From assembly GCA_003635265.1 (NCBI GenBank), contig PYIZ01000009.1, forward strand, positions 22,270 to 86,269: a stretch of 64,000 bases of DNA. The letters are read 5' to 3'. Origin of the DNA: Candidatus Poribacteria bacterium. Lineage in GTDB: Bacteria; Poribacteria; WGA-4E; PCPOR2b. Each line of letters opens with the position of its first letter. Position 1 is the first letter of the stretch. Under the pieces are notes generated by a model that worked only from the letters and a program-made list of their open reading frames with translations, ran no database searches and was not told where the DNA came from. Below are positions 27,144-57,134 of the stretch, piece after piece. The position numbers and the translations under genes were made by a program.

Positions 27144-29192
27144 ATGACGACAAGCATTTCTACAAATGGAGCTTCCATGCCTGAAATGGTTTCCATCAAG
27201 GCGACTGACATCTCTGCGCCGCCCGGATGGGCGCTGATGGAGCGTAACCTGATCGACCTCATGGAGGAAGCGGCACCCATAATGGTCAAGAAGTACACAG
27301 AACCGGGGGGCGCCCTTTACTTTGCAGAGGACTTCGACGATCTGTACGAGCAGTTCTACAACTGGTGCTTGTTTTACGCCATCGGTGCCGATGAGAGTTT
27401 GCTTGACCTTGCGTTACAGGGGTGGAACGCGTCGACCCGAATTAGTGACGACAGCTTCAATCATCGCCTTCGACACAATAATTTTACAAAAGTGTTCAGA
27501 CCGTCGATGCACAACGAATTCTGGAATCTGGCGCAATCTACGGAGTGGCATCATCTTGGCGAAGGCAACATGGCGTTCTACGATTTCGGTGTTGCTTGTC
27601 CCACCGTCTCGGAGAACGTCCGTCGAGCGCGGAGATTTGCTGCGATGTTCATCGGCGAGGATCCGGAAGCCCCCAATTATGACCCTGAGTATAAAATCCT
27701 CCGATCCCCGTTTCACTCCAGTCAGGGACCGAGATTACATGCAGATGCGAATTTCGTGAACACCATGCTGCTCGCCGGAAGATATCTAGGTGGCGAGGTC
27801 AACTATTACGGTGTACGTGCGAGTCTTTATCCAATCGTCGAAGATCTCGAACTGAATTGGTATGAAGACCCAAAACGCAGGGAAGAGATTGTGGAATTGT
27901 TTGAGAAGATGGTCTTACATGCCGACACCCCCAATAGTTTAGGTGCTACTGCGCTCGTCACGAATGCTTACCTGTATACAGGCGATGAGAAGTACAAGCG
28001 GTGGGTATTGGAATACACGGAAGCATGGTTGGATCGGATGCGTCGTAATAATGGGATTATGCCCGATAATGTGGGACATACGGGAAAGATTGGGGAGCAC
28101 CGCAATGGCGTGTGGTGGGGTGGACAGTATGGCTGGAATCACTATCAGGGCTATAATATTATGTTTCACTCGCTCACCATCGCCGCTGAATGTGCCTTGC
28201 TACTTACTGGCGACTTCGGCTATCTTGAACTTCTCCGCTCACAGATTCAGCTGCTGTTGGAAAATTCGATAACACGGGAAGATGGGCAACTTATCATGCC
28301 GACGCGCTATGGTCCCGATGGCTGGTGTTATGACCCGCCTGTGGGTCCTTCCAACGATGATATTCTACCCAAGAGAGGTGTCTACACAGGACCGATTCCG
28401 TGGCGAATGCAGGAACTTGCCCACCTGTATCATGCGTCGATGTCCCCTGAGGATTATGAGCTAATCACACGGATACGAGATGGCGAGGTCGAGCGCGATT
28501 GGAATGAAATTGGGGACAGGGGTGGCGAGAAGAACGGGGGCGAAACAGAATTCGCCCGTTTTCAATACTACGATGGGTTGAATCCCGATTGGCCCGAGAA
28601 GATACTGAGTGCGGAATACCGATGGGCGTTGGAGGCATTCGACAAGATGCGTCTCGACGATCGTGCTGTTGAAGAAATTGTTACAACGAACTTCTTTCCG
28701 CCGAATCCTGTTTTCACGAAGGGTTTGACGCAGGTCACGATGGGTGCGCCGCAATCGGTTTACAATGGCGGACTGCTCCGAGCGACTGTACGCTATTATG
28801 ATCGGGACAACGCTCGCCCCGGCTTACCGGGCGATGTTGCTGCCCTCGTCGATAAATTGGCGTCAGATGGTGTCGGAATCCAACTGGTGAACCTCAGCAC
28901 GACTGAAACGCGAAACGCCATCGTGCAGGCGGGTGCTTTCGGAGAACATCAGTTTACTGGACTCAAATACCGAGAGATGAATCAAGAGGAATTACGTCAA
29001 AATCCGTATGGATGGCTCCGGTCGGAACGAGAATACGCTGACAAAGAAGTTCCGGTCAATGGGAAGTATTTTGCAGTCGAACTTCCGCCTTCGACATCTG
29101 TCCGGCTGGAGGTTGGCATGCGTCGTTTTGTGAATGATCCGAGCTACGCCTTCCCGTGGCATGGGGAGACGATTCCAGTGCCGTTTCAATAA
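27144..29192 (+). CDS. Hypothetical 682-aa cytoplasmic protein, possibly an (alpha/alpha)6-barrel glycan-active enzyme
   Basis: Clean long ORF, W/Y-rich (WWGGQYGWNHYQGYN), no signal peptide. Function not recognisable from sequence. Confidence 0.3.
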   Translation: MTTSISTNGASMPEMVSIKATDISAPPGWALMERNLIDLMEEAAPIMVKKYTEPGGALYFAEDFDDLYEQFYNWCLFYAIGADESLLDLALQGWNASTRISDDSFNHRLRHNNFTKVFRPSMHNEFWNLAQSTEWHHLGEGNMAFYDFGVACPTVSENVRRARRFAAMFIGEDPEAPNYDPEYKILRSPFHSSQGPRLHADANFVNTMLLAGRYLGGEVNYYGVRASLYPIVEDLELNWYEDPKRREEIVELFEKMVLHADTPNSLGATALVTNAYLYTGDEKYKRWVLEYTEAWLDRMRRNNGIMPDNVGHTGKIGEHRNGVWWGGQYGWNHYQGYNIMFHSLTIAAECALLLTGDFGYLELLRSQIQLLLENSITREDGQLIMPTRYGPDGWCYDPPVGPSNDDILPKRGVYTGPIPWRMQELAHLYHASMSPEDYELITRIRDGEVERDWNEIGDRGGEKNGGETEFARFQYYDGLNPDWPEKILSAEYRWALEAFDKMRLDDRAVEEIVTTNFFPPNPVFTKGLTQVTMGAPQSVYNGGLLRATVRYYDRDNARPGLPGDVAALVDKLASDGVGIQLVNLSTTETRNAIVQAGAFGEHQFTGLKYREMNQEELRQNPYGWLRSEREYADKEVPVNGKYFAVELPPSTSVRLEVGMRRFVNDPSYAFPWHGETIPVPFQ

Positions 29193-38321: not shown

Positions 38322-38385
38322 GAAAGTGCAAAACGATAAGACCGTGAAACGTGAAAACTATTGGTTCATTAGTTCATTTACAGGA
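38322..38385 (+). repeat. Conserved 60-bp leader motif, copy 1 (AAAGAAAGTGCAAAACGA...CGTGAAACGTGAAAAC...TTGGTTCATTAGTT)
   Basis: Near-identical to 41467-41525. Related cores at 57135-57180, 62171-62230 and 34503-34517. Immediately upstream of the cupin gene RBS. Confidence 0.7.
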
Positions 38386-38400
38386 GGTTTGAGAACAATA

Positions 38401-38751
38401 ATGAAAATAACCCGTCTCTATACTGGCTCCGATGGCGAGTCCCATTTTGAGGATATGGAGATTCCTCTTGAAGATAGCGGTGACATTGGCAAAATGTCAC
38501 AACTTCAAGATGCGAGAGGGATCATTTTTCGGGAAACTGGTCCCAACTATGACTATGATTGGCATACCGTTCCACAAAGACAATACGTCATAACGTTAAG
38601 TGGTGCGGTTGACATTGAGGTGGGTGATGGGACGACAAGGCGCTTTGGTCCTGGGGATATCCTCTTGGCGGAGGACACTACCGGCAAAGGGCATCGGAGC
38701 CGGGCAGTCAACGCCCAACCAAGGAAGAGTATTTTTGTGACGCTAGATTGA
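38401..38751 (+). CDS. Small cupin-domain protein
   Basis: 116 aa. Conserved cupin beta-barrel pattern (ITLSGAVDIEVGDG...FGPGDILL). The ORF opens at 38278, but a strong RBS AGGAGG precedes ATG 38401. Confidence 0.55.
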   Translation: MKITRLYTGSDGESHFEDMEIPLEDSGDIGKMSQLQDARGIIFRETGPNYDYDWHTVPQRQYVITLSGAVDIEVGDGTTRRFGPGDILLAEDTTGKGHRSRAVNAQPRKSIFVTLD

Positions 38752-38997
38752 GATATTGGTGAATTAAAAAAAGGAACCAAATCGGCAATACCCACGTTGT
38801 ATATTAGGCTATGCTCTATTCAAATTGCAACCTTTCACTTGCTTTGTTCGTTTTTATTTGCGAATTATCCGAAGCCTTATCCGGCTATTGTTGAAAGCCG
38901 AAAAGGGAAACAGGTTTCTGAATTAAGGATTGTACTTGCCCGTCGATGGAGAAGATTAAGCCTAAACTAGTACTTAATACTTAGGAGTCGAAGGAAA

Positions 38998-40347
38998 ATG
39001 AAATCGCTCAGAGACAAAAGCATGGGAAAACAGAGATTGCTTAACACTCAGAAGAAAAATTACCTCTATCATGTATGGCTGTGCCTTCTACCGATGCTCC
39101 TCATTGCCTGCAGCGGTTCTCTTGGGAAGATTCAATTGGAAAACGTCAATACTGTTATCGCACAATCTGAAGTAGCGATTGAACAGGCACACCTTGCCAA
39201 CGCTCAATACCTTGCGTCAGACACTTTGCAGCAGGCGGTAGATGCCCTTGCAAGTGCGAAGGAAGCTGTGGATGCTAAGGATGGTCTCGGAGCGATGCAG
39301 CTAGCCTATAACGCCTTGACTCAAGCACAGATTGCTGAACAAGAGGCGATGTATAAATCGCAGGGGAATGGGCTAAATGCTATCATTGAACACAAGAAAT
39401 TGCAGATTGTTGCGCTTGAAGCAGATCTAGTAACAGCAGATGAGGCACTCGAAAAATCTCGAACGGTTGTCGAGCGATTGGGGATGCAAAAGGATCAGTT
39501 GCAAGCTGACATGGACCAAAAACTTCAAGAGACTGAACAAGCACACCGAGAGATATTGCAGGATTATAATAAAGCCAAAACCGATCATGGAAACCTTCAG
39601 TTAAAATTGGATACGACCCAAACACAACTTCTCCAAGCTCAGGGTCGAGTAGAAGAGCATGAGCGTCAGATTGATCAGTTGCGTCGTGAACTGGCAGATG
39701 CTCAATTGTCGGCAGAGAAAGCCCACAAGGCGGAGGCGGATGCACGAACACAGGCAGCGGCGCAGGTACAGCGCTATTCAAATCACATTGAACAACTGGA
39801 TCAGTCTAATGTGTTAAAACGGCGAGAAGATATGCTATCCCAAAAAAAAGAGGAAGCAAAGGCTTATGTTCAGCAGCAGCGCAGAAAACAAACAGTTCGG
39901 ACCAACAGTACTTCATTGACCAATATGCAAATTGCGAGCGGTAGAGCAGTTATTAACGATTGGGCACTTGCGTGGTCGGCGAAAGATATAACCCAGCACT
40001 TGAGCAAGTACACCCAGGATGCGACGCTGGATCAGACCGTTATTCGCTCTAGCAACGAGGAACAAATCCATCTCAACCGTACACAGATGGTCGCTGCTTT
40101 GAAAAAGATGGTAGATGCCGAGTGGCAAGAAACGGATTCCAAGTTCGATGCAGACGGCGAGAGTGTTATTGCTGTCTATAGCTTTAGTCGTCTTTCACGA
40201 GATGTAGCGAGTGGAGGGGTTCCCGCTCTGCACGATTTGTGGACGCGGGAAGTGTGGGTGCGTCAAGTTAGGGCTGAGTGGAAAATTTTCCGTGAAAGTT
40301 GGCGGATTTACGAGGCGGTGCCACGGTATGGCGCTGCTGTTAATTAG
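38998..40347 (+). CDS. Lipoprotein with a long coiled-coil region and a C-terminal NTF2/SnoaL-like domain
   Basis: Lipobox LLIACSG, then about 250 aa of Q/E/A/L heptad-rich sequence. C-terminal about 120 aa has W..AW..KD....L..Y..DA...W(K/R)I..ESWR.Y. Paralogous to the C-terminus of the next ORF. Confidence 0.5.
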   Translation: MKSLRDKSMGKQRLLNTQKKNYLYHVWLCLLPMLLIACSGSLGKIQLENVNTVIAQSEVAIEQAHLANAQYLASDTLQQAVDALASAKEAVDAKDGLGAMQLAYNALTQAQIAEQEAMYKSQGNGLNAIIEHKKLQIVALEADLVTADEALEKSRTVVERLGMQKDQLQADMDQKLQETEQAHREILQDYNKAKTDHGNLQLKLDTTQTQLLQAQGRVEEHERQIDQLRRELADAQLSAEKAHKAEADARTQAAAQVQRYSNHIEQLDQSNVLKRREDMLSQKKEEAKAYVQQQRRKQTVRTNSTSLTNMQIASGRAVINDWALAWSAKDITQHLSKYTQDATLDQTVIRSSNEEQIHLNRTQMVAALKKMVDAEWQETDSKFDADGESVIAVYSFSRLSRDVASGGVPALHDLWTREVWVRQVRAEWKIFRESWRIYEAVPRYGAAVN

Positions 40348-40359
40348 GAGGGTAGATCG

Positions 40360-41454
40360 ATGCGATCCAGCGACTCTAAAATTTCCACCACATTTCAGAA
40401 TCCCAACACCCGTTTCGGCGTGATCGGTATTATCGGAGCAGCCATCATCCTCCTAGCGATGGTACTTGGGCTACAGGTTATTGAAGAGACTGGGGTGATT
40501 GATCCCTTCCTCCAACAGTGGAAACAAGCTGTCGAATCCAAGCAACCGAGATTATATCAACAGTTATGGGATTCGACCGCACGAACCAAAAACCGGAATC
40601 AGTATGAACGCGCATTGAAACTCTTCAGCAGAGAAAAGGTTGAAGCGGATATAACTGGACATCTTGCTCAGAAAGATCTCGGGAACACGAATCGACAACA
40701 GATTGAACGCATCCCTGTCACGCTCTACCAAGATGGTAAGGTTTTAGTGGTAATCTATCGGGACATAACTGTTGAAAAGAGGGGACTTTTACAACGCTGG
40801 AAACTGATAGACGATAAAATTCACGATGAGTTAGGATATCCCGAAACCACCGAGGAGTATATCGTTCAAGATCAAGAGATGGTCGCTCAATCTGCCAATC
40901 CAACGCCCGAAAGTCGTTCGTTGCAGCCCGTTGATGCTCCAATGCCTTCCAATAACGTTGTTACATCGCCTCAAGCCGCTGCGCCCAAAAGTTCCTCGCC
41001 GATTGTCGGTGAGGCACCGCTTGATACCCAGCTTAAATTGAGCCAAGTTTTGGGGGAATGGCAGCAGGCTTGGCAGGGAAAGAATCTTACAATCTATATG
41101 TCGAAGTATGCCGAAGACGCAGTGATTACAAGGGTCGCTATTAACAGGGGACGAGAATATCCGACTCGGTTGGATAAAAAACAGTTGCGCGAGAAAATGA
41201 AAGCTCTTAATGAAAGGTATAGCAAAATTAAAGTGAATATTTTTCAGTTGCAAATCCACGGAGATAGTGCGGTAGCTGATGTCAATTTCTTACAAGAATT
41301 TGTTGGTACTCGCGCCTCTGGAAGTCAACCTGTTTACTCAGATTTCGGCAAGAAAGAATTGGTTTTTATGGTGGATCCTGCCGATGGCGTCTGGAAGATC
41401 TATGCTGAGAGTTGGAGACATTATAAAAACGTCCCCAAGTATCCGAAACTTTAA
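40360..41454 (+). CDS. Membrane-anchored paralog, with a C-terminal NTF2/SnoaL-like domain
   Basis: One N-terminal TM helix (FGVIGIIGAAIILLAMVLGL) and a Pro/Ser-rich linker. C-terminal domain LGEWQQAWQGKNLTIYMSKYAED...WKIYAESWRHYKNVPKYP matches the WKIFRESWRIYEAVPRYG of the upstream protein. Confidence 0.5.
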   Translation: MRSSDSKISTTFQNPNTRFGVIGIIGAAIILLAMVLGLQVIEETGVIDPFLQQWKQAVESKQPRLYQQLWDSTARTKNRNQYERALKLFSREKVEADITGHLAQKDLGNTNRQQIERIPVTLYQDGKVLVVIYRDITVEKRGLLQRWKLIDDKIHDELGYPETTEEYIVQDQEMVAQSANPTPESRSLQPVDAPMPSNNVVTSPQAAAPKSSSPIVGEAPLDTQLKLSQVLGEWQQAWQGKNLTIYMSKYAEDAVITRVAINRGREYPTRLDKKQLREKMKALNERYSKIKVNIFQLQIHGDSAVADVNFLQEFVGTRASGSQPVYSDFGKKELVFMVDPADGVWKIYAESWRHYKNVPKYPKL

Positions 41455-41466
41455 GGTTCATGTCAA

Positions 41467-41525
41467 AAGAAAGTGTAAAATGCAAAGCGCGTGAAACGTG
41501 AAAAGCATTTGTTCATTAGTTTGTT
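41467..41525 (+). repeat. Conserved 60-bp leader motif, copy 2
   Basis: AAAGAAAGTGTAAAATGCAAAGCGCGTGAAACGTGAAAAGCATTTGTTCATTAGTT. Directly after the stop of the paralog gene and upstream of the lipoprotein gene. Confidence 0.7.
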
Positions 41526-41734
41526 GGCAGTAAGAAGCAATGATCGTTGTTCACTACCGTTTCTGTTGTATAATTTTTTAACTTGAGCCAACTTAAATCA
41601 TCATTTTGGATTAAATTACTATCACCGATTGACTGAAACCGCGCATTCATCTATGCGTTTTTGTTATTGGATAAATCTTGGCAGCCCATTTTGGCTGAAT
41701 ACACCCAAAATTTCAACCTACAAGGACAAGAACG

Positions 41735-42220
41735 ATGATTAAAATCTTACGTATAACACCAGTTCTAGCACACATGGTTTTACTCACTATTGCCCTGTGC
41801 TTGCTCAGTTGTGGCGGGAGTTCTGTTGAGAACCCGCTTGGAGAGTCGGAAGAAACCTATAATACAGTTACACAGGTAGATATGGAGAATCAATCGCTTA
41901 ACGTCAAGGTCGAGGTAAGCAAAGATACCGTCCAAGCTGGTGAGACAGTGAACATGACAGCAACTGTTGACGAACTTCGAGGCAGCAACATCATCTTTAA
42001 TTGGATCAACACAACCGATTACGGCACATTGACCGCCACAGATGAAAATAAGGCGATTTGGTCTGCTCCAGAAAAGTCGGATGGCGTAGTTAAAGTTGAA
42101 GTGCTTCAGCTTGTTGTTACAGCAATTAGCCAAATCGTCTCGGTACAATCGTCAGGAGTCGATACCGATACTGAAGTCTTGACATCAACCAAGACTATAT
42201 TACTCACTGTTACAAATTGA
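41735..42220 (+). CDS. Small secreted lipoprotein (161 aa)
   Basis: Signal peptide plus lipobox LLSCGG. Beta-rich T/V/N composition. Its 3' end overlaps the next gene by 4 bp. Confidence 0.5.
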   Translation: MIKILRITPVLAHMVLLTIALCLLSCGGSSVENPLGESEETYNTVTQVDMENQSLNVKVEVSKDTVQAGETVNMTATVDELRGSNIIFNWINTTDYGTLTATDENKAIWSAPEKSDGVVKVEVLQLVVTAISQIVSVQSSGVDTDTEVLTSTKTILLTVTN

Positions 42221-43956
42221 CAACTGGTGCTCCTGCCTTGTCACGGTCAAATTTTTATTTTGATTCAGAATTGATTAACCGATTGAGTGCTCGATCAGTT
42301 TTTTGGGAAGGAATGGTAATGCAACAGGTCCTCACCTGTGTTTTGCAATTAAATAAAAAGAAAAAAGCGCTCAGTCTGCCGACCACATACGAACACCGTA
42401 ACCATTGGCGTCTGTTCTGGGTCGGAAGCGTGGTGTTGTGGTTGTTGTGCATTTCGGTAGCCTCGGCTTCCCTTCGACCGGTGGTTGGTGCGAGGGCGCT
42501 TGGTATGGGTGGAGCATTTATCAGCAATGCTAGTGATTCAACTGGGGCGCTCTGGAATCCCGCGGGCCTTGCGAGCCTTGAGCATGGCAGTTTGGTATAC
42601 GATCTTTCTCAAGGCGCAGTTTCCTTCGGGTATCCAATCCACTCCGTAGGAACACTCGGCTTCAGCGTTTTAGATTTGAACGGCGAAGATCGCTTCTTCC
42701 ACGACCATCCGAACAACCCGGTCGGAACATTCGAGAGAGGTTATAATCAAGTTCTCCTGTCTTATGCCCGATCAATTGGCAGCCGATTCCAGCTTGGTGG
42801 GAATCTTGGATACAATCGTGCGCCGAACCCTGACAGCCAATGGGAGCCAAGTTACGACCTTGGTGCTATTGTCAAGCTGCCGCGCCATATTATCCTAGGG
42901 GCAAGGTTGATAGATATTTCTGGAGTGACCATTCCGGACCGGGAAGGAAGACTTCTGAGGCAATTCGATCAGACATTTGCCGTTGGGGCCGCATGGAAAC
43001 CGGTTCAACTGCTTCAGTTGAACAGTGTGTTGGATACAGCGCTGTGGCAGCTCAGAGTGGGCGGTGAAATCGGCGCGTATGGACTTGCGCTCCGGTTAGG
43101 TACAGCAATTGACCTGATAGGACTCCAACCAGAACCTGACTGGAGTATGGGATTTTCTGTTAATGTCCACGGCAAGCATCTCCATTACGCCTACTTGAGC
43201 CAGTCAGACGTGGCATATAAACATCTTCTTGCCGTTGGTTTGACATTTGATTTATCCGATCAAACAGTCTCGGCTTCCGTGAGCAAACAGGGGACTTCCG
43301 CAACGAGAATGAAGACTTCCGTGGTGAGAATGAAGACTTCTGTCAAGGGAAGAACGACTTCCACGGCGAGTAAAAGGGAAACCTCTGTGAAGAGAAGCGA
43401 GAAAACTCAAACAGAAAGACCTCCCAAACGTACGCCCGATAATACGAAGCGGATTGCTACTGATACAGAAGCTGCTAAAAATGCAAAATCTCCAACTGAG
43501 CAGATTGCAAAGCAGTACGAAGTCGAGGTTGATCTCATCCTTGCCTTGGTTAAAGTGGAGTCAACCTTTAATCCCAAAGCAATCTCTCCCACCGGTGCCG
43601 TTGGGTTGATGCAACTGATGCCGCCGGCGGCACAAGACCTTGGCCTCAAGATGCCATCCTATCAGAACATAAGAAAGCCGACACCACATCCCAGCGTTGA
43701 CGAACGCTTCAATCCGCTTAAAAACCTAGAAGCGGGAGTCAGATATCTGCACGAAATGCTTAAAAAGTATGATGGAGACTACGGCCTCTCACTCGCCGCT
43801 TATCATGCGGGATCAGGAAACGTGCGGAAAAACGGGAAACTCAGCCCTCAAACGGAGCGGCATGTTGGCAAAGTTCTCAAAAGCTACTATCAATACAAGA
43901 GAGATGCCACGCTAAAAAATACCGATCTTCGCAGATTGGATGCTATTCTCAGGTAG
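42217..43956 (+). CDS. Fusion protein: FadL/PorV-like outer-membrane beta-barrel N-terminal region, 7-aa tandem repeat linker, and a C-terminal lytic transglycosylase (SLT) domain
   Basis: N-terminal region has GARALGMGGAFISNASDSTGALWNPAGLA (recalled as the FadL/PorV-type barrel hallmark). C-terminus has ...LVKVESTFNPKAISPTGAVGLMQLMP...AGVRYL...AAYHAGSGNV (SLT catalytic E in the ES motif). The true start is probably internal, at the signal-like MVMQQ or later. Confidence 0.7.
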   Translation: MTTGAPALSRSNFYFDSELINRLSARSVFWEGMVMQQVLTCVLQLNKKKKALSLPTTYEHRNHWRLFWVGSVVLWLLCISVASASLRPVVGARALGMGGAFISNASDSTGALWNPAGLASLEHGSLVYDLSQGAVSFGYPIHSVGTLGFSVLDLNGEDRFFHDHPNNPVGTFERGYNQVLLSYARSIGSRFQLGGNLGYNRAPNPDSQWEPSYDLGAIVKLPRHIILGARLIDISGVTIPDREGRLLRQFDQTFAVGAAWKPVQLLQLNSVLDTALWQLRVGGEIGAYGLALRLGTAIDLIGLQPEPDWSMGFSVNVHGKHLHYAYLSQSDVAYKHLLAVGLTFDLSDQTVSASVSKQGTSATRMKTSVVRMKTSVKGRTTSTASKRETSVKRSEKTQTERPPKRTPDNTKRIATDTEAAKNAKSPTEQIAKQYEVEVDLILALVKVESTFNPKAISPTGAVGLMQLMPPAAQDLGLKMPSYQNIRKPTPHPSVDERFNPLKNLEAGVRYLHEMLKKYDGDYGLSLAAYHAGSGNVRKNGKLSPQTERHVGKVLKSYYQYKRDATLKNTDLRRLDAILR

Positions 43957-45280: not shown

Positions 45281-45381
45281 ACCTGTGTCCATATAATTTT
45301 GTCAATAATGTTTTCATGATGCATTATGTTTTACCGAATTTGCACTTTTCGGGTAAAAAAATCAACAGGGAAAGAGTTCGT

Positions 45382-45669
45382 ATGACGGTTGGAAAAGTTG
45401 TGGGAACTGTCGTTGCCACGCGAAAAGATGAAAAACTCGTCGGTAGTAAGTTGCTGATTGTGCAGGATACCGAGCTAGATGGAACGCTCCTCAGTCGATA
45501 TACGGTCGCTGTTGATGCTGTTGGTGCGGGTGTCGGCGAGTTGGTGCTCACCGCAGCAGGAAGTTCAGCACGTCAAACTGACGTCACCAAGAACAAACCT
45601 ATTGATGCGGTGATCATGGCAATTGTCGATTCGATTGAGGTGCATGGGGAAATCCAGTTTCAGAAATAG
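45382..45669 (+). CDS. Bacterial microcompartment vertex protein (BMC-P; EutN/CcmL/PduN family), an orphan copy
   Basis: MTVGKVVGTVVATRKDEKLVGSKLLIVQ...YTVAVDAVGAGVGELVLTAAGSSARQ...PIDAVIMAIVDSIEV follows the EutN/CcmL pattern closely. No BMC-H/T shell genes are in the window. The ORF opens at 45316, but the RBS favours 45382. Confidence 0.8.
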   Translation: MTVGKVVGTVVATRKDEKLVGSKLLIVQDTELDGTLLSRYTVAVDAVGAGVGELVLTAAGSSARQTDVTKNKPIDAVIMAIVDSIEVHGEIQFQK

Positions 45670-45713: not shown

Positions 45714-47456
45714 ATGGTTGCAAATTCAACAGATTTACCTCTTAAAATTGAACTCATCAAGCGAATCCGTTGGCTTGTTAAGCTCCGTTGGATTGCTATA
45801 ACGGGTGTCTTGCTGACTGTCAGCATTGCAAGTTGGGGACTCCACATCATTGACAATCCAACGCCGTTGTACATCATTGCGGCGTTGATGACGCTTTACA
45901 ACTTTGAGCCGCAAATCTATCCCAAACATCTTACGGAAAAGCCGCTCGTATCAATTCAGCGACATGCGGGTAGACATATTATCCTAGATTTGTTCTCTTT
46001 GACGGCGCTCATCCACTTTAGCGGTGGCGTTGAGAACCCGTTTATTTTTTATTTTATCTTTCATCTTGTTATTGCGAGCATACTCCTCTCTAAAAAAGTT
46101 AGTTACATCCTTGCCACACTGAACACAATTCTTTTAAGTGCCCTTATTTTTTTCGAGTATTACCACGTCCTGCCCCATTACCATCTACAGAATTTTCTGC
46201 CTGCAACGCTCTGGCAAGATCCGATTTACATTTCAAGTGTGCTGTTTGTGTTTACCAGCACCCTGTTTTTCTCCGTCTATCTTGCAACATCCATTATGGA
46301 CACCGCGAGGGCGCGTGAGGCAGAAACCCGCGAATTGAAAGACAATCTTGAGGAAAAAGTCGTTGAATTAGAAGAGACAAGAGGAGCAGTGCTTTTCGAG
46401 CGAAATAAACTCACGTCAATTATTGAGTGTATGCAGGAGGGGGTTATCTTTGTTGACGACAAGAACCATGTGTCACTCTTTAACAAGGCGGGACAGCAGA
46501 TCCAAAAAGAGCAATTCGGACTTGATACAGAAGCCATCCAATCCCCAGAGGCTGACGGGGTACTCCTGCAGATCGCAGAGGATTTATCGAAGGGACACGC
46601 GGTGATTGAACAGCAGAGTCTACAGATTAAGGATAAATTCTTTGAAAACACTTATGCCGCCGTGCGCGACAGGGATGAAAACTATTTAGGCACGGTTTTG
46701 GTTTGCCGCGACGTGACCGATCGGAAACGGATGGAACAGCAGATGGTTCAATCAGAAAAGATGGCAGCAATAGGTGAATTGGCATCAGGGGTTGCACATG
46801 AGATCAATAATCCTCTTGACGGGCTACTCAACTGTATCCTTCGGATAAAGCGCGATCCGCAGAACGAGCGACAGACCAAAGAATACTTGGGGCTCATGGA
46901 GGAAGCTCTCAGGCGGATTGAATCGACCGTTGGGCAGCTTCTTAATTTCTCACGTCAACGTGATTTGGAACTCACGTTAGTTTCTCTCAATGAGGTTGTC
47001 GATGAAGTTGTTAGTCTGATTGTGTATAGTGCTGACGAGAAAGGTATTCAGATTGAGAAGCATTTCCAAGAAGAACTAGACCTAATCCGTGGGGACAAAC
47101 ACCTATTAGAGCAGGTTGTCCTGAACCTTGCCCTCAATGCGATTGCGGCTATGCCCGATGGTGGTGTATTGACCTTCAAAACTGGGGAGATTGAATTTGA
47201 TGCGTTATTTGGTAAGGCAACGGTTTTCGTTCAAGTAACGGATACAGGAATCGGTATCCCCATGTCCGTCCAAGATCGGATTTTTGACCCGTTCTATACC
47301 ACAAAGATTACTGAGAAAGGCACGGGGCTTGGACTCTCGGTATCCAACCGAATAATCGGACAACATGAAGGTGTCATCGAATTCGATAGTAAAATTAAGC
47401 AGGGTTCCGCGTTCACCGTTAAATTACCGATTAGGAGAGGGGTGGAAAAGGATTGA
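45714..47456 (+). CDS. Membrane-bound PAS-domain sensor histidine kinase
   Basis: About 190-aa N-terminal polytopic membrane region, then PAS (FERNKLTSIIECMQEGVIFVD), HisKA H-box (HEINNPL) and HATPase (GTGLGLS). Confidence 0.85.
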   Translation: MVANSTDLPLKIELIKRIRWLVKLRWIAITGVLLTVSIASWGLHIIDNPTPLYIIAALMTLYNFEPQIYPKHLTEKPLVSIQRHAGRHIILDLFSLTALIHFSGGVENPFIFYFIFHLVIASILLSKKVSYILATLNTILLSALIFFEYYHVLPHYHLQNFLPATLWQDPIYISSVLFVFTSTLFFSVYLATSIMDTARAREAETRELKDNLEEKVVELEETRGAVLFERNKLTSIIECMQEGVIFVDDKNHVSLFNKAGQQIQKEQFGLDTEAIQSPEADGVLLQIAEDLSKGHAVIEQQSLQIKDKFFENTYAAVRDRDENYLGTVLVCRDVTDRKRMEQQMVQSEKMAAIGELASGVAHEINNPLDGLLNCILRIKRDPQNERQTKEYLGLMEEALRRIESTVGQLLNFSRQRDLELTLVSLNEVVDEVVSLIVYSADEKGIQIEKHFQEELDLIRGDKHLLEQVVLNLALNAIAAMPDGGVLTFKTGEIEFDALFGKATVFVQVTDTGIGIPMSVQDRIFDPFYTTKITEKGTGLGLSVSNRIIGQHEGVIEFDSKIKQGSAFTVKLPIRRGVEKD

Positions 47457-48772
47457 AAGTACTGGTTGTTGATGATGAAAAAATCAAACTAATTACACTA
47501 CGCGATGATTTGCGCGAGGCGAACTACGATACTATTGCGGTTGAATCTCCAGCGATTGGACTACAACTTGTGCAGAACGAACATTTTGATGTTCTGGTTA
47601 CCGATTTGCGCCTGCCGAAGATGCACGGAATTGAATTTCTCAAGCGCGTCCAGAAGGAGCAGCCCCATATTATTGTGATTGTCATGACCGCCTATGCGAG
47701 TGTCGAAACCGCTGTGGAAGCGATGAAATTTGGGGCGTATAACTATATCAAGAAACCGTTTTCCAGCGAAGAACTGATTCAGATGTTGGATAAACTGAAA
47801 ATGCTCCACGGTAGAGATAAACAGCGTTCACAACTAAAAATTCCGATGAAAGGACGCTCTCCATACCATCATATTATTGGGAAAAGTCAAGCGATACAAG
47901 ACCTCTTTGACCTGCTTGAAAATATCTCCGACACCCAGAGTACTGTGCTAATCTACGGTGAACATGGTACAGGAAAGACGCTCGTTGCAAAATCAATTCA
48001 TTTTAACAGCACGCGTAGGCTCCATCCCTGTAGAATCGTAAACTGCTCAGGAATACATGCCGACACGTTGGATCGAGAACTATTTAGAGACAAGCAAACG
48101 GCAGGCGAGTTTGGGCGTAAAGGGACCCTTTTTCTTAAAGATATTGATGCACTTCCTGTTGCACTACAGATTAAATTCCTACAGGTACTGGAGAGGCAGC
48201 AGCTAAACCTAAGCAGAAGCGCACAAAGGGAGGATGTGCGGATTATTGCTGCGACAACCAAAAACTTGCGTACAAAGGTTCATAATGGGGAATTTCGAGA
48301 CGATCTCTTCTACCGTCTAAACGTTGTCCCGATTTTTCTGCCACCGTTACGTGAACGGGTCGAGGATATTCCTCTCTTAATTAATCACTTTTTAGATTTA
48401 TTCTCACCCAATACCCCTATTCACATTGCTCCCGAAGTTGTCGAGGTGCTCACAGCATATCCATGGCCCGGCAATGTCCGCGAATTAGAAAATGTGATCG
48501 AACGGCTTGTAACGATTGGAGACAAGACAGATATTACCACGGACGATATTCCGCTTGAGTTGAAACTACCAGCGCAGGTCAGTTTAGATGAGACGTTGAG
48601 TGAGATCTCCTTCCAAGAGATTATCCAGTCGACAGAGCGCGAACTCATCGGTTGGGCGATGAAAAAAGCAAAGGGGAACAAAACACAAGCCGCAAAACTG
48701 CTCAAAATGAAGCCCTCAACCTTCCGTGATACCCTTGCCAAGTATATTAACCAGATCGAATGGCAGACGTGA
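47453..48772 (+). CDS. NtrC-family sigma54-dependent response regulator (REC-AAA+-Fis HTH)
   Basis: REC domain (VVDDE...D at LVTDLRLP). AAA+ Walker A GEHGTGKT. C-terminal HTH (KTQAAKLLKMKPSTFRD). The GAFTGA loop is degenerate (QTAGEF). Overlaps the kinase gene by 4 bp. Confidence 0.8.
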   Translation: MKVLVVDDEKIKLITLRDDLREANYDTIAVESPAIGLQLVQNEHFDVLVTDLRLPKMHGIEFLKRVQKEQPHIIVIVMTAYASVETAVEAMKFGAYNYIKKPFSSEELIQMLDKLKMLHGRDKQRSQLKIPMKGRSPYHHIIGKSQAIQDLFDLLENISDTQSTVLIYGEHGTGKTLVAKSIHFNSTRRLHPCRIVNCSGIHADTLDRELFRDKQTAGEFGRKGTLFLKDIDALPVALQIKFLQVLERQQLNLSRSAQREDVRIIAATTKNLRTKVHNGEFRDDLFYRLNVVPIFLPPLRERVEDIPLLINHFLDLFSPNTPIHIAPEVVEVLTAYPWPGNVRELENVIERLVTIGDKTDITTDDIPLELKLPAQVSLDETLSEISFQEIIQSTERELIGWAMKKAKGNKTQAAKLLKMKPSTFRDTLAKYINQIEWQT

Positions 48773-49476: not shown

Positions 49477-49592
49477 CCTTTTGTTTGAGGTAAAGCGGTC
49501 TAGGTCTTTTAGCAAGCCCCCTTCCAGATCAGCGTAGGAAGGGAGGTCATGCATGATTGTGCAGGACAAAAACTGGGGGCACTCAGAAAGAG

Positions 49593-50573
49593 ATGGGTCA
49601 GGGCCACATACCTGTTCTAGTTGATGAAGTGATTCAGTTTTTACAGCCGAAAAATCACGGTTTTTATGTGGATGGCACGGTTGGATTAGGTGGGCATGCC
49701 GCTGTCATTTTGCAAAAATCTGCGCCGGAAGGATTCCTACTTGGTATTGATTTGGACGTGGAGGCGTTGGCTATTGCCGAGGAAAGACTGCATAAATATA
49801 AGGAGCGGGTAACATTTGTCGGTGACAATTTCGCTCACTTAGATCAGCTGCCTCAACTACATCGCAGTAGAGATTCGCAGGAAACCACGGTTCGGCAAGT
49901 TGATGGCATTTTACTAGACCTAGGGGTATCGTCTTTGCAACTTGATACGCCGACAAGAGGGTTTAGTTTCAATCACTCTGGTCCTTTAGATATGCGGATG
50001 GATGCTTCCCAGGCTCTATCAGCGGCGCACGTTGTGAACCGCCATCCCGAAGACGCACTCGCAACGATTTTTACGCAGCTGGGTCAAGAACGCTGGTCTA
50101 AAAAGATTGCACGCCAAATTGTTCACGCTCGAAGACGTAAGCCAATCTCAACAACAGGTCAACTGGCTGAAATCGTTCTGGAGGCGATTCCCCCTAAATC
50201 AACGGGTTGGCGCATCCATCCCGCGACAAGAGTTTTTCAGGCGTTGCGAATCTATATTAACGATGAACTTAAAAACCTCCATTCCGGGATACATTGTGCT
50301 GCTTCCGCTTTGAAGCCCGGTGGACGCTTATGCATCATCTCTTTCCATTCTCTTGAAGATCGAATTGTTAAAGAACAGTTCCGCGCCCTCTCACGTGCTT
50401 GCATTTGCCCACCGAAGGCTCCTATCTGTATGTGTCAGCATACACCTACTCTTGAAATACTGACCAAGCGTCCAATAATTCCAACCCCCGATGAAATTCG
50501 ACGTAATCCTCGGTCCCGAAGTGCGAAATTACGAGTTGCGATGAAGATCCACGAATCTAAAACGCCAGATTGA
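49593..50573 (+). CDS. rsmH: 16S rRNA (cytosine1402-N4)-methyltransferase RsmH (MraW)
   Basis: HIPVLVDEV...DGTVGLGGH...LLDLGVSSLQLD... motifs. The ORF opens at 49557; the start is probably the MGQGH codon. Confidence 0.9.
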   Translation: MGQGHIPVLVDEVIQFLQPKNHGFYVDGTVGLGGHAAVILQKSAPEGFLLGIDLDVEALAIAEERLHKYKERVTFVGDNFAHLDQLPQLHRSRDSQETTVRQVDGILLDLGVSSLQLDTPTRGFSFNHSGPLDMRMDASQALSAAHVVNRHPEDALATIFTQLGQERWSKKIARQIVHARRRKPISTTGQLAEIVLEAIPPKSTGWRIHPATRVFQALRIYINDELKNLHSGIHCAASALKPGGRLCIISFHSLEDRIVKEQFRALSRACICPPKAPICMCQHTPTLEILTKRPIIPTPDEIRRNPRSRSAKLRVAMKIHESKTPD

Positions 50574-50633
50574 ACGTTTCTTAAAAACCAGACGAGATGG
50601 TTTGCAAAGGAACAATTAGAGACTATTTTAACC

Positions 50634-50927
50634 ATGAAATACCAAAAACCAGCTCCATCGTCAAAATTTCATCCCTTTGCATACTTCGCGCTTGCCATTT
50701 ACATCGGTATCTTTTTTCTCAGTGCATGGTTTGCGTCAAATCAACACAAGGTTGCGTTGCAAATGCGTGAGGAATTTGAGCAGCGAAGAAATCAATTCCA
50801 CAACGAAATCAATAGGCTGAAGATAGAGGAAACAAGGCTCACCTCGATTGAACGGATTCACGAAATCGCGAAAGATCTTCAGATGGTTCAACCCTCTGAG
50901 TCAACCCGTGAGCTGCGCGCTGATTAG
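50634..50927 (+). CDS. ftsL: FtsL-like cell-division protein
   Basis: 97 aa, single TM then coiled coil, positioned between rsmH and ftsI. Assignment by position and architecture. Confidence 0.5.
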   Translation: MKYQKPAPSSKFHPFAYFALAIYIGIFFLSAWFASNQHKVALQMREEFEQRRNQFHNEINRLKIEETRLTSIERIHEIAKDLQMVQPSESTRELRAD

Positions 50928-51038
50928 GATCTGTGAATCGAGCGTTTAATTGTGCAATCGCTTAACTTTGGAGCATTCTGGAAATGTTCATCCCCTTGAA
51001 GAATATCCTCCACAATGCGGTTGTGAACTTGAAATGTA

Positions 51039-52904
51039 ATGGGTGATATGCCTCATATTTCGGGTAAGCCATTCAATCCTTGTGAGGTTCCTCACCAACG
51101 GTGCACACTGTTACACTTCTGCATTAATTGCCCTATGAACAACATACCTTTTTCCCGGATTACAATTGTATGGGTTGGTTTGGAACTATGTTTAGGATTA
51201 TTGATAGGACGTTTGTTTCTAATCCAGTATGTACACGGTCGGGAGCTGCGTGAACGCTCTGAAAATCAGCGTAACACGGAAGTAGGCTCTCAGACAAAGC
51301 GCGCTACGATTTTGGATCGGCACGGCAGCGTCTTTGCAATCAATCAGGACTTAGTCTCGGTCTATGCAGATCCAAAGGTGCTGAAAGATGAGCCTGATGA
51401 TATTGCTCGTAAACTTGCGCCGTTGCTCAACGTTTCGGAAGATAGACTATTGTCGATACTGCAGCAAAAGAAAAGGCGTTTTGTTTGGCTGAAGCGGAAC
51501 TTAGATTATGAACGCCTTAATGACATCCGCCAAGTCACTAAAGGCATTTATGGGATCGGATATCGGACCCATGGAAAACGGTCTTACCCAAAAGACGAAC
51601 TAGCGTCCCATATTATTGGATATACCAATTTTGAAAATAGAGGCATTGACGGAATTGAGCATCAATACGATACATATCTAAGTACAGATAACAGAAATGA
51701 CCTCCCGGAATCACAGCCAAAAAGTAATCGAATCACCGCCGATGGAAAGAGACGCCCGATTCGTCCGCCACAACTTTATCAACAAGGGAGGCGATACGGT
51801 CGTAGCATTGTCCTTACGCTTGACGAATACATCCAACATATCACAGAAAGGGAACTGATTGCCGGTTGCGAGGAGTGGCAAGCAAGAGCGGGTAGTGCGA
51901 TCGTTATGCACTCCAAAAGTGGCGAGATTTTAGCATTAGCAAATTATCCGAATTACAATCTCAATGACTACTCAAGGAGTGAAGAGTCAGCCAAACGAAA
52001 TCGTGCCATCTGGATGCAATACGAACCCGGTTCCGTATTTAAGATCGTCACTGCTGCTGCCCTCCTCAACGAGAAACTGATGTCTCCGGACTCACGTGAA
52101 TATTGCGAGATGGGGGAATATCATTTGTCCAATGGGCATGTCGTTCACGATGTTAAGCCCAATGCGTGGTTAACGCTCAACGAAATTATCGCAAAATCCA
52201 GTAATATTGGCATCCTCAAGGCTGCGAGGTATCTTGATAAAGAGCAGTTGGAGACCTATACGCGCCGGTTTGGTTTTGGTGAAAAAACGGGTATAGATCT
52301 GCCTTACGAACGTGCCGGCAGCTTGAGAGGTATCGAAAAATGGGATGACTACACGATTGCCTCTGTTCCGTTTGGGCAGGGGATTTCTGTGACTCCCATA
52401 CAGATGTTGAATGCCATCAACGTAATTGCTACCAAAGGTGTGCTGCTACAGCCGTATATCACTCGACAAATTATTGATAAGGAAGGAAGTCTGCTGGAAC
52501 AATCAGTCCCCCAGCCAATTCATCGCGTTATTTCTGCAGAAACCGCACAGGCGATAACACAAATGCTTGTTGGGGTGACGGAAGCGGGTGGTGGGCAGAG
52601 GGCGCGCGTCGAAGGATATACAGTGGCTGGCAAGACCGGCACAGCACAGAAAGCGGAACGAGGAAAAGGGTACGTCGAAGGCAAAGTGGTTACCACTTTC
52701 GCAGGATTTCTTCCAGCGGAGGATGCCTTATTCTCAATTATTGTTGTTGTTGACGAGCCGGCGGCGGCTCCATTGAGCAGCCATGTTACCGCACCGATGT
52801 TCCAGAGGATTGCGAGTGAAGCGATGTGGTATTTGAGTCAAAAGGACCTCTTTGTTCAGAAATCAACCTCAAGCTATGCGGGAAACCAATCAGCACTTCA
52901 GTAA
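51039..52904 (+). CDS. ftsI: Peptidoglycan D,D-transpeptidase FtsI (class B PBP)
   Basis: TM anchor, then the active-site motifs SVFK, SSN-like (SSNIG) and KTGT (KTGTA). The start is probably an internal ATG (MNNIPFS). Confidence 0.85.
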   Translation: MGDMPHISGKPFNPCEVPHQRCTLLHFCINCPMNNIPFSRITIVWVGLELCLGLLIGRLFLIQYVHGRELRERSENQRNTEVGSQTKRATILDRHGSVFAINQDLVSVYADPKVLKDEPDDIARKLAPLLNVSEDRLLSILQQKKRRFVWLKRNLDYERLNDIRQVTKGIYGIGYRTHGKRSYPKDELASHIIGYTNFENRGIDGIEHQYDTYLSTDNRNDLPESQPKSNRITADGKRRPIRPPQLYQQGRRYGRSIVLTLDEYIQHITERELIAGCEEWQARAGSAIVMHSKSGEILALANYPNYNLNDYSRSEESAKRNRAIWMQYEPGSVFKIVTAAALLNEKLMSPDSREYCEMGEYHLSNGHVVHDVKPNAWLTLNEIIAKSSNIGILKAARYLDKEQLETYTRRFGFGEKTGIDLPYERAGSLRGIEKWDDYTIASVPFGQGISVTPIQMLNAINVIATKGVLLQPYITRQIIDKEGSLLEQSVPQPIHRVISAETAQAITQMLVGVTEAGGGQRARVEGYTVAGKTGTAQKAERGKGYVEGKVVTTFAGFLPAEDALFSIIVVVDEPAAAPLSSHVTAPMFQRIASEAMWYLSQKDLFVQKSTSSYAGNQSALQ

Positions 52905-52959
52905 TTGGGGTTACTTGGTTCATATCGTCTAGGTTGCGATATCCCCGGAAGATAAGCGG

Positions 52960-53790
52960 ATGAAAAGCGTAAATGTAAAGTGCCTACTTTGCATTACAAT
53001 ATTGGCACTGGTCGTTGTCAACCAAGCTGAAAGTGACATTCGAGTTGCCCCAGATGTGGTTGGTTTAGCCGTTGGGGGAGAGTTAGTTATTGTGGGGAAG
53101 TTGTTAGCAGCAGAGGAGAAGGTGGACACGCAAATTCAGGTGCAGTATACGGATGTCGTCGTAGAGGTTGTCCAAGTCATTCGGAATATAACAGAACAGG
53201 AGATAAAGGTCGGTGCCACTATCAATTTTCGCCTCCCTGACGTGCCAATCGGTTATGGCAGATTTGAAGCGGAGTTTAGCAAAGAGGAAATAGGTGATTT
53301 ACTTCTGTTACCGCTAAAACGACCTCACCCCCGAACAACAGTGGGTCGCAGAAAAGGGTTTGACACCATTTTTGACGTTTATGGGGGAGACCATGGGAAA
53401 CACACCGTTAGAATTAAAAATGACCTTCCTATGGTGTATCTGTTTGGGCTGAAGCGAAGGGTCGAAGACCCACAATTTCGACGTTCACGTAATCGACGGT
53501 TACATAACGACCATTATCGAGAGTTGGAGATTGGATTGCCTCTTGACTGGGTTCTAGAGGTAATGAATATAGCGATTATTGTCAATGCTAGGAATCCGGT
53601 GAAAAACCCGAAAGATCCCGGAGACATACCCGCAGAAATCAGGCTTCAGTATGAACGGCTTAGAAGTTTAGAAAAATCGGTTCGCAAATTAGCACGGGAT
53701 GGCAGATCAGAAGCCTCTATTATCAAAACTGCTCGTAAAGAACTCGATCAATTTAAAGAGGAATTAGACCTAGAAAAAGGGAACGAATAA
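52960..53790 (+). CDS. Hypothetical secreted protein (276 aa) inserted between ftsI and murE
   Basis: Signal peptide (LLCITILALVVVNQAES), a charged C-terminal coiled-coil tail. No known motif. Confidence 0.4.
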   Translation: MKSVNVKCLLCITILALVVVNQAESDIRVAPDVVGLAVGGELVIVGKLLAAEEKVDTQIQVQYTDVVVEVVQVIRNITEQEIKVGATINFRLPDVPIGYGRFEAEFSKEEIGDLLLLPLKRPHPRTTVGRRKGFDTIFDVYGGDHGKHTVRIKNDLPMVYLFGLKRRVEDPQFRRSRNRRLHNDHYRELEIGLPLDWVLEVMNIAIIVNARNPVKNPKDPGDIPAEIRLQYERLRSLEKSVRKLARDGRSEASIIKTARKELDQFKEELDLEKGNE

Positions 53791-53879
53791 GACAAAAACA
53801 GGGTTTTCTTTTACACAGTGATTGTATTTTTTTTGGCTTTGTTCGTTATAGAATTTTCTGAAGGTCGGAGGTGGACTAG

Positions 53880-55337: not shown

Positions 55338-55387
55338 CACTAATGAAATAATTTTATTCAACTACGGCATCAGGAGGTGAGTTTAAC

Positions 55388-55609: not shown

Positions 55610-55704
55610 TAGAGGCAAATTGACCTGTTCAACCGCACCTACTATTATTATCCATTCCAGTAGGCTGGGCACAGGAAACAATTGCTCATACCCCACCCAT
55701 CATT

Positions 55705-57072: not shown

Positions 57073-57134
57073 AGTTTGGCACCTAATCACCAATGGTGCT
57101 AGTTTACAACTGTTGATATGCTTGCCGGTCAAAG

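Follow-up and report, generated by a model that had tools for sequence, protein, structure and literature searches.

A predicted barrel-anchored lytic transglycosylase belongs to one of two independently conserved envelope gene pairs in Candidatus Poribacteria

Introduction

Lytic transglycosylases are normally soluble or lipid-anchored. In E. coli, soluble Slt70 and the membrane-bound MltC, MltD and MltE/EmtA share a GH23 SLT domain with Glu-Ser, GLMQ and AYNAG-type motifs, and the Mlt enzymes, which are lipoproteins, act on the sacculus from their tether on the inner face of the outer membrane. At division, LysM-M23 factors act with lytic transglycosylases or amidases, as in the case of DipM with SdpA/SdpB in Caulobacter and of NlpD/EnvC in E. 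coli. A different group of wall enzymes, the LD-carboxypeptidases Csd6 (H. pylori), Pgp2 (C. jejuni) and Bd1075 (Bdellovibrio), has an accessory NTF2-like domain, which in these proteins serves to bind peptidoglycan or to direct the protein within the wall (PMC8038945; PMC8938487). The PorV/PorQ barrels of the type IX secretion system (T9SS), FadL/TodX and the Bacteroidota BamG-type barrels are without an enzymatic periplasmic domain.

Poribacteria are uncultured sponge symbionts. Here we analyse four neighbouring genes in a 64,000-nt stretch of Candidatus Poribacteria DNA (hereafter the window), which a preliminary description had read as a "four-gene envelope operon" that looked to encode an envelope-spanning assembly opening the sacculus locally, for secretion, for an appendage or as a tether. 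We propose that one of them, D, encodes an ordinary enzyme with an unusual anchoring, and that the four genes are not a new four-part envelope machine.

Results

The four genes form two independently conserved pairs

The ORFs A (38998-40347), B (40360-41454), C (41735-42220) and D (long ORF 42217-43956) were all found on the plus strand where they had been described, apart from the start codon of D (see below), and good Shine-Dalgarno sites lie upstream of A and B. Co-occurrence was scored in 42 Poribacteria species loci. In 37 of them C sits next to D, and A-B lies beside C-D in one clade only (18/42 species loci). Within this clade almost the entire neighbourhood is syntenic, including the flanking cupin and GFO/IDH/MocA genes, so the presence of A/B beside C/D says little about function. 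In the 19 more distant D-bearing species loci, as well as in loci L001, L002 and L009, neither A nor B was found within 10 kb of C-D. Distant relatives instead keep A and B closely paired elsewhere: the A ortholog adjoins the B ortholog away from C-D in L007 and L008, and both pairs are present at separate sites in genome OZ244587.1. The four genes are thus not conserved as an operon, and their co-occurrence fails outside a single clade; what is conserved, independently, is the A-B pair and the C-D pair. The other neighbours of C and D differ by lineage (for example ribosomal proteins and BamA; DapB and RecQ; transposases). The dcw cluster lies 5.6 kb downstream of the locus, but this proximity is a feature of the clade and was not taken as a sign of function.

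The spacing of the genes is also uneven, with a B-C gap of 133-280 bp versus an A-B gap of 12 bp. The B-C intergenic region (41455-41734, plus strand) spans 280 bp in the window, as against about 133 bp in most other members of the clade. It contains a weak terminator-like hairpin (41641-41658), which was rejected as a B-C terminator, since such sites occur at chance level (6 against 5.8 expected) and a re-scan of 18 relatives whose intergenic region could be used turned up no strong conserved hairpin. As no convincing terminator separates B from C, co-transcription of A-B-C-D is possible in the window's clade.

These data bear on the idea that A, B, C and D form one trans-envelope assembly, with B anchored in the inner membrane, A as a coiled-coil lipoprotein reaching across the periplasm and the barrel-SLT protein D in the outer membrane together with C, which would open the sacculus locally. 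It would account for the genes being close together and on one strand, both in the window and among 18 related species, and for the lack of a strong terminator between B and C; moreover, all four products are envelope proteins, and both modules plausibly touch peptidoglycan. However, the adjacency is limited to a clade where unrelated flanking genes are syntenic too, A and B are missing near C-D in the distant loci and in L001, L002 and L009, A-B occurs elsewhere as its own tight pair, and the B-C gap is far wider than that between A and B. Hence, we consider a single assembly quite unlikely.

D carries a predicted PorV/FadL-type barrel in place of a lipid anchor

The start of D had been placed at TTG 42217 and is corrected here to ATG 42319 (M35 of the long ORF), the most likely start, which is the same in every called ortholog. 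A predicted signal peptide (42319-42468, plus strand), whose n-region is long, contains the hydrophobic core LFWVGSVVLWLLCISVASA and, by eye, a cleavage site between ASA and S; residues 24-45 form a helix in the AF2 model. D has no lipobox, as its sole Cys lies in the hydrophobic core (WLLC) and lacks a G, A or S at -1. The barrel (42469-43248, plus strand) is of the PorV/FadL outer-membrane beta-barrel type and has an N-terminal GARALGMGGAF...WNPAGLA plug motif. The AF2 model and the fold search gave a FadL-like outer-membrane fold, in agreement with the barrel first proposed from the motif, and among solved structures the T9SS translocon component PorV comes closest in fold. Nevertheless, D scores below the NCBIfam cutoffs for PorV_fam (51.5 versus 90), PorV2 (33.3 versus 325) and PorQ (18.5 versus 220), and there was no Pfam PorV match at E<=1. 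D differs from the PorV/PorQ, FadL/TodX and BamG-type barrels in falling below every curated family cutoff, in lacking a T9SS context in the neighbourhoods examined and in having a predicted enzymatic periplasmic domain.

A linker of about 79 aa follows (43249-43485, plus strand), which is T/S/K/R-rich and disordered (AF2 pLDDT 30-43). It includes four in-frame 21-bp copies of a 7-aa, TSxxRMK-like repeat at 43294-43377, copies 2-4 matching the first at 17, 13 and 14 of 21 positions; TRF reported only 2.3 copies (43293-43340). The repeats previously noted at 43294-43400 are thus real, with a pattern that decays past 43377. D orthologs vary from 441 to 568 aa.

The C-terminal part of D (43486-43956, plus strand) is a family-1 (GH23) SLT lytic transglycosylase domain, matching PF01464 over residues 428-546 with 107.9 bits (cutoff 21.3). 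The E448-S449 pair is invariant in 39 D orthologs (31-86% identity), GLMQ stands at 463 and AAYHAG (the AYHAG motif) at 527, and the structural matches of the domain are Slt, MltC, MltD and MltE. The fusion of a lytic transglycosylase to the barrel, as originally suggested, is therefore confirmed at the domain level. D shares its SLT domain and motifs with Slt70 and the Mlt enzymes and, like the latter, is proposed to act on the sacculus from the inner face of the outer membrane. Unlike them, it has a fused PorV/FadL-type barrel of about 260 residues and a long disordered linker instead of a lipobox, and a dedicated lipoprotein partner, C.

No secretion or appendage genes accompany C-D in the neighbourhoods examined

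Could D be specialised for a secretion system or appendage, as a T9SS PorV-like shuttle or for the insertion of a flagellum, a pilus or a T3/T4/T6SS? Its closest barrel fold belongs to the T9SS translocon, and lytic transglycosylases dedicated to particular machines are a known theme (PMC8517470). In addition, the best whole-protein NCBIfam match of D is the Borrelia flagellar lytic transglycosylase BB0259 (NF047373), with which it has an SLT domain in common (model positions 552-652); yet the score of 78.5 is far below the cutoff of 234, and D has no flagellar context. The IagB model gave 18.7 (cutoff 208). No secretion, pilus, flagellar or T9SS genes lie beside C-D in any annotated Poribacteria neighbourhood examined, and neither T9SS core genes nor CTD-bearing cargo were found among the scanned window genes or the annotated Poribacteria flanks. 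Unlike the specialised enzymes VirB1, IagB, EtgA and BB0259, D was not found inside, or co-distributed with, a secretion or flagellar gene cluster, its neighbourhoods being variable and unrelated to such machines, and the conserved third partner of C-D is a LysM-M23 peptidoglycan endopeptidase (see below), not a secretion gene. Going by the neighbourhoods examined, a specialised role of this kind is very unlikely. The assembly for secretion or appendage insertion that had been envisaged loses support on both counts, since the four-gene linkage fails and the annotated neighbourhoods hold no such genes. Literature searches found no paper linking lytic transglycosylases with PorV, and none that was relevant, by title or abstract, among those naming Poribacteria together with lytic transglycosylases or T9SS.

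C and an ancestral LysM-M23 endopeptidase accompany D

C (41735-42220, plus strand) is a small lipoprotein, as first described, with a lipobox in the window (LLSC-GGSS) and in orthologs (L-x-G-C), a disordered tether of about 25 aa and an Ig-like beta-sandwich (57-160), most of which is modelled by AF2 with a pLDDT of at least 80. The fold search returned only generic Ig-like or antibody domains, and the 352 homologs of C belong to no Pfam family. Identity across the 42 loci is 39-91%, and at least 47% wherever D is adjacent. Judged from its strict linkage upstream of D, C would be an obligate partner that most likely binds D, or regulates it, at the outer membrane's inner face.

In nine species loci, C and D are separated by an intact LysM-Peptidase_M23 gene that encodes HxxxD and HxH motifs and whose 3′ end overlaps the D start. 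The ancestral core order is C, LysM-Peptidase_M23 endopeptidase, D. What the window retains of the M23 gene is a decayed piece of its 3′ end (42306-42401, plus strand), which overlaps the D start in a different frame. It reads GRNGNATGPHLCFAIK, a stop, and KEK...RTP before a second stop, as compared to GRSGHATGPHLHFEIRWKGK...RMP and a stop in the intact version (tblastn E 2.5e-4), with 18 of 32 positions identical and the stop at the same position. Of the 21 clade loci examined, 20 show this relic in decay, in most cases interrupted by in-frame stops; the M23 gene has been lost at the C-D locus in the window's clade. Where it is intact, the Poribacteria M23 protein keeps the HxxxD and HxH metal ligands and is therefore probably active as an endopeptidase, in contrast to a degenerate activator. 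The ancestral C-M23-D order, which links the genes of a LysM-M23 protein and a lytic transglycosylase, parallels DipM and NlpD/EnvC; it differs from the degenerate activators in those ligands, which are gone with the gene from this locus in the window's clade. The ancestral LysM2-M23 endopeptidase, translationally coupled to D, would have brought glycan cutting and peptide cutting together, a combination that would fit general sacculus remodelling or daughter-cell separation and not the servicing of one machine.

The barrel of D might itself be functional, either as a FadL-type channel that carries the anhydromuropeptide products of the enzyme over the outer membrane (released to the sponge host or taken up) or as a docking subunit that brings wall cutting to another outer-membrane machine such as BAM. 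The plug motif conserved in PorV/FadL-type channels is retained in D, and barrels of this kind dock onto other machines, examples being the SprA translocon and the Bacteroidota BAM complex. Conservation of the motif may, however, reflect folding needs alone, the linker would let the enzyme work far from the barrel mouth, and the single BamA gene near D (in L001) is not conserved there. We regard this role of the barrel as doubtful.

A and B are anchored proteins with related NTF2-like domains

A (38998-40347, plus strand) is a predicted lipoprotein (lipobox LLIAC-S), with a DUF4398 match at residues 54-120 (E 2.5e-8), a helical region of about 250 aa and a C-terminal NTF2-like domain (residues ~317-445). 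No functional literature on DUF4398 was found. The lipobox in the original account of the A anchor stands; its "coiled coil" is better called a helical region, which is free of proline (residues 45-300) and A/Q/L/E/K-rich, since a crude Fourier analysis gave no distinct 3.5-residue (heptad) peak, and a coiled coil was dropped as a proven feature. B (40360-41454, plus strand) is a bitopic membrane protein, anchored as proposed by a TM helix (~19-41) and a Pro/Ser linker, which is variable, between a conserved N-domain (~45-165) and a C-terminal NTF2-like domain (~227-362). The N-domain possibly has an NTF2-like fold too: its PDB profile matches are weak (a designed NTF2 protein, E 0.039; Bd1075, E 0.08), and hhalign related it to the C-domain with a probability of 6%. 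B has 103 homologs, and all of those with an organism name are from Poribacteria.

The C-terminal paralogy of A and B is borne out by BLASTP (30% identity over 137 aa, E 8e-15) and hhalign (98.5% probability, E 3.7e-15). Their NTF2-like fold, likewise, follows from B, which passes the cutoffs of PF24125 marginally (27.4 bits, cutoff 27.0; 40.1 bits for the B ortholog in L008) and of DUF4440 (26.8 bits, cutoff 25.2). A alone matches DUF4440 weakly (E 0.033) and belongs to the PF24125-type group only through its homology to B. PF24125 ("Cds6_C NTF2-like"), which we take to be named after H. pylori Csd6, links B to the accessory domain of Csd6, Pgp2 and Bd1075, although the match of the B profile to Bd1075 (7O21) is weak. 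Searching the PDB directly with the A, B and C sequences yielded no useful match. Unlike Csd6, Pgp2 and Bd1075, A and B have no LD-carboxypeptidase or other catalytic domain (no YkuD-type domain in Pfam/NCBIfam profile scans), and their NTF2 domains sit on a helical stalk in the lipoprotein A and behind a TM anchor in B.

A-B probably constitutes an envelope pair of its own that binds peptidoglycan. A lipoprotein and an inner-membrane-anchored protein, each with a Csd6/Pgp2/Bd1075-type NTF2-like domain, would form a non-enzymatic binding or tethering pair with no mechanistic tie to C-D. This suggested role extrapolates from distant homologs with marginal scores, within a domain class of very diverse functions.

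Discussion

The reading that we favour, with some confidence, is that two independent envelope modules came to lie side by side by chance in the window's clade and that C-D is an outer-membrane-anchored peptidoglycan-cleaving unit. D would leave the cytoplasm via Sec, and a PorV/FadL-type barrel formed by its N-terminal ~260 residues would insert in the outer membrane, with the chain emerging on the periplasmic side, as expected of an even-stranded fold. The linker, which is flexible, basic and variable in length (about 80 residues), would then let the C-terminal SLT domain reach the sacculus and, judging from its family and intact Glu-Ser motif, cut MurNAc-GlcNAc bonds to leave 1,6-anhydroMurNAc ends. 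In effect, D would be an Mlt-type membrane-bound lytic transglycosylase with a barrel replacing the lipid anchor, and together with C, and ancestrally the M23 peptidase, it may serve general wall remodelling.

A more far-reaching proposal, which we think unlikely, is that the D barrel takes an active part alongside the enzyme fused to it and forms with C (ancestrally also with M23) an outer-membrane peptidoglycan-processing complex, specific to Poribacteria and a few other uncultured lineages, that exports anhydromuropeptides or docks onto BAM or another outer-membrane machine, to which the window's clade might add A-B. If true, anhydromuropeptides passing through or beside the barrel could signal to the sponge host, while docking would couple local wall opening with outer-membrane biogenesis.

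None of these findings overturns current models. PorV/UPF0164-like barrels with periplasmic LysM, TPR or CsgG-like domains make up a broader, little-noticed class, to which D adds an enzymatic member, and the A-B pair suggests a stand-alone wall-binding use of Csd6-type NTF2 domains. In summary, D as a phylum-wide barrel-anchored lytic transglycosylase would represent another way to place wall cutting under the outer membrane, and C-D offers a conserved, experimentally approachable cell-envelope module in Poribacteria.

Gene Layout and Synteny of the Four Genes

The four same-strand ORFs of the preliminary description were recovered by an ORF scan at exactly its coordinates: A, an NTF2-tailed lipoprotein (38998-40347, 449 aa); B, an NTF2-tailed protein anchored by a TM helix (40360-41454, 364 aa); C, a small lipoprotein (41735-42220, 161 aa); and D, in which a PorV/FadL-type barrel is joined by a linker to an SLT lytic transglycosylase domain (long ORF, 42217-43956). 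The start of D was moved to the ATG at 42319 (MQQ...), which is preceded by GGAAGGA, since all called orthologs start at the equivalent codon. A and B, both with strong Shine-Dalgarno sites, are 12 bp apart, and 280 bp separate B from C.

Neighbourhoods were compared using metagenome contigs encoding D or B homologs, 42 GTDB Poribacteria species loci retrieved with the C profile, and a tblastn mapping of all components onto these 42 loci. D lies directly 3′ of C in 37 of the 42; one further locus is interrupted by a contig end, and four, which carry the most divergent C copies of the set (39-47% identity), have no D. A and B adjoin C-D in 18/42 loci, every one with a C at least 77% identical, and there an upstream cupin gene is also syntenic, as is a downstream GFO/IDH/MocA oxidoreductase (17/18). 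Hence, the position of A-B beside C-D in the window's clade is the plain conserved gene order of close relatives. Neither A nor B was found within 10 kb of C-D in any of the 19 more distant D-carrying loci, and distant A-B orthologs still form a tight pair (11-bp gap) at unrelated sites on two other contigs, L007 and L008 (51% and 30% identity for A, 53% and 43% for B). Both pairs occur on the chromosome OZ244587.1, at separate places. This co-occurrence pattern divides the four genes into two modules, the A-B pair being unrelated to the C-D module. The preliminary description had read them as one operon whose products looked like an envelope-spanning assembly, and had named failure to co-occur in relatives as grounds for refutation; its domain assignments were correct, but its reading of the genes as one system holds only in part, and the synteny data speak against a trans-envelope machine built of four proteins. 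Within the window's clade, transcripts of B may run on into C; the gap between the two holds a single terminator-like hairpin, which is at chance level and not conserved.

The window also holds a dcw cluster (49557-58514; MraW, FtsI-type PBP, MurE, MurF, MraY and an unannotated 276-aa ORF at 52960-53790), whose first gene lies 5.6 kb 3′ of D and which is close to D in the window's clade only. A solitary EutN/CcmL-type microcompartment vertex gene (45316-45669) adjoins the genes of a PilS-like histidine kinase paired with a sigma-54 response regulator (45714-48772); these annotations come from the syntenic locus L003. Two large ORFs, 21565-25017 (minus strand, 1150 aa) and 27144-29192 (plus strand, 682 aa), matched no Pfam family at E<=1e-5.

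The A-B Pair

A begins with a lipobox (LLIAC/S), followed by DUF4398 (residues 54-120, E 2.5e-8) and about 255 residues without proline, rich in A/Q/L/E/K, before its C-terminal domain. The N-domain of B is conserved; it follows a TM helix and is joined by a variable Pro/Ser linker to a C-terminal domain above the Pfam thresholds for DUF4440 and Cds6_C (NTF2-like), the latter marginally (27.4 bits, cutoff 27.0), with 40.1 bits for the L008 ortholog. The proposed paralogy of the A and B C-terminal domains was upheld by BLASTP (E 8e-15) and by profile-profile comparison (98.5% probability, E 3.7e-15). An NCBI protein assigned to Candidatus Poribacteria matches B at 100% identity, and every homolog bearing an organism name came from Poribacteria. 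In distant B orthologs (P0372-P0378, ~470 aa; e.g. L008 8001-9413), the N-terminal WKxAxES...RWKLI domain is duplicated in tandem.

Among characterised proteins, the shared domain is closest to the accessory NTF2 domains found in Pgp2, Csd6 and Bd1075, the last of which was matched weakly by the B profile. DUF4398 is frequently found with OmpA-type wall-binding domains, which would suit a wall-binding role. In the three enzymes, the accessory NTF2 domain has a role in peptidoglycan binding or in targeting within the wall (PMC8038945; PMC8938487). A and B have the NTF2-type domain in common with these proteins but, unlike them, yielded no catalytic domain in domain searches, suggesting that A-B could be a wall-binding or tethering pair.

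Architecture of D and Its Partner C

An AF2 model of D built from 39 orthologs divides into four: first a signal helix, next the barrel (pLDDT about 90) preceded by a plug-like N-terminal segment, then ~75-80 residues of disordered linker (pLDDT 30-43), and last the SLT domain (pLDDT >90), whose active site is intact. The linker is T/S/K/R-rich, and the 21-bp repeats reported there are present and in frame, as four copies whose extent is corrected to 43294-43377. The initial observation is confirmed as real, with small corrections to this extent and to the D start. As in FadL and PorV, the barrel would be embedded in the outer membrane and have its two termini on the periplasmic side, and a linker of ~80 residues, up to roughly 25 nm when fully extended, would allow the SLT domain to range over the sacculus below that membrane.

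C is a lipoprotein whose orthologs show L-x-G-C. Its AF2 model has a disordered tether of ~25 residues and an Ig-like beta-sandwich (domain pLDDT mostly >=80); a fold search returned generic Ig-like matches only, and no Pfam or NCBIfam family was found. C would presumably bind or regulate D.

The Decayed 3′ End of an M23 Endopeptidase Gene at the Start of D

C and D are separated by a 280-aa gene in nine species loci as well as in contigs L001 and L009; the product of this gene has two LysM domains and Peptidase_M23 (E 1e-36) with intact HxxxD and HxH metal-binding motifs. The DNA of its final ~30 codons also encodes, in another frame, the beginning of D. In the window, sequence comparison located the decayed 3′ end of this gene at 42306-42401, overlapping the D start in a different frame. 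The relic, GRNGNATGPHLCFAIK-stop-KEK...RTP-stop, matches the intact end, GRSGHATGPHLHFEIRWKGK...RMP-stop, at 18/32 positions, with the terminal stop co-located and one internal stop gained. Similar relics, mostly with in-frame stops, occur in 20 of 21 examined loci of the window's clade, the exception being L024, where the match is not significant. Since GPHLHFE is a general signature of M23 peptidases, D must, judging from these sequences, have inherited its 5′ end from an ancestor whose M23 gene overlapped it. This M23 gene has been deleted in the window's clade; a second clade, in which fainter traces are left, also lacks the gene and has probably undergone a deletion too. For the D module, the barrel fold, disordered linker, intact SLT site, strict C-D linkage and ancestral M23 coupling are computationally established.

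The C-D spacers of L013 (C ends 10483, D barrel starts 11690) and L015 (10483 and 10928) are ~950 bp and ~190 bp longer than in sister species; neither has an M23 match, and the extra DNA may represent insertions.

The C-D unit would serve general wall remodelling or cell separation, since the only partner that recurs beside it is a further wall hydrolase and the genes around them are different in each lineage. An enzyme dedicated to a secretion system or appendage is disfavoured: the PorV, PorQ and BB0259 models scored far under their cutoffs, the BB0259 match was confined to the SLT domain, FadL fits the D fold about as well as PorV, and secretion or appendage genes were absent beside D in every neighbourhood examined. 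The barrel may have a function of its own, either passing muropeptides or serving as a subunit that docks onto BAM or a translocon.

Distribution of Barrel Fusions

An exhaustive HMMER search with the D barrel domain alone returned 1349 relatives at E<=1e-3 and only 13 at E<=1e-30. Among 148 newly returned matches, 17 carry an SLT domain, namely the Poribacteria family and three remoter fusions (P0138, P0155 and P0184; 31-33% barrel identity); no C-like neighbour was found beside the two of these with readable context. The remaining relatives are mostly stand-alone (~300 aa), and some are joined to other periplasmic modules, including a weak transglutaminase-like match and, in PorV/UPF0164-like barrels of other uncultured bacteria (P0137, P0179, P0210, P0216, P0236 and P0267), LysM+TPR, TPR or TPR+CsgG+FlgT_C. 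Such fusions suggest that periplasmic proteins anchored by a barrel form a broader, undescribed class, a wider theme of which barrel-SLT is the enzymatic instance.

On the contig of P0155 (L005, 10520-17461), a stand-alone UPF0164 barrel gene adjoins that of a giant protein (>2296 aa) that has multiple Ig-like domains and whose CHU_C-type matches are only faint. The two resemble a T9SS shuttle and cargo pair, so a T9SS may be present in this organism, in contrast to what the surroundings of the Poribacteria loci showed.

D-type proteins are publicly annotated only as "lytic transglycosylase domain-containing protein", and a literature search found no paper describing the fusion. In summary, barrel-SLT is a phylum-wide, previously undescribed anchoring mode for a standard lytic transglycosylase, and it comes with a dedicated lipoprotein, C, and an ancestral endopeptidase partner.
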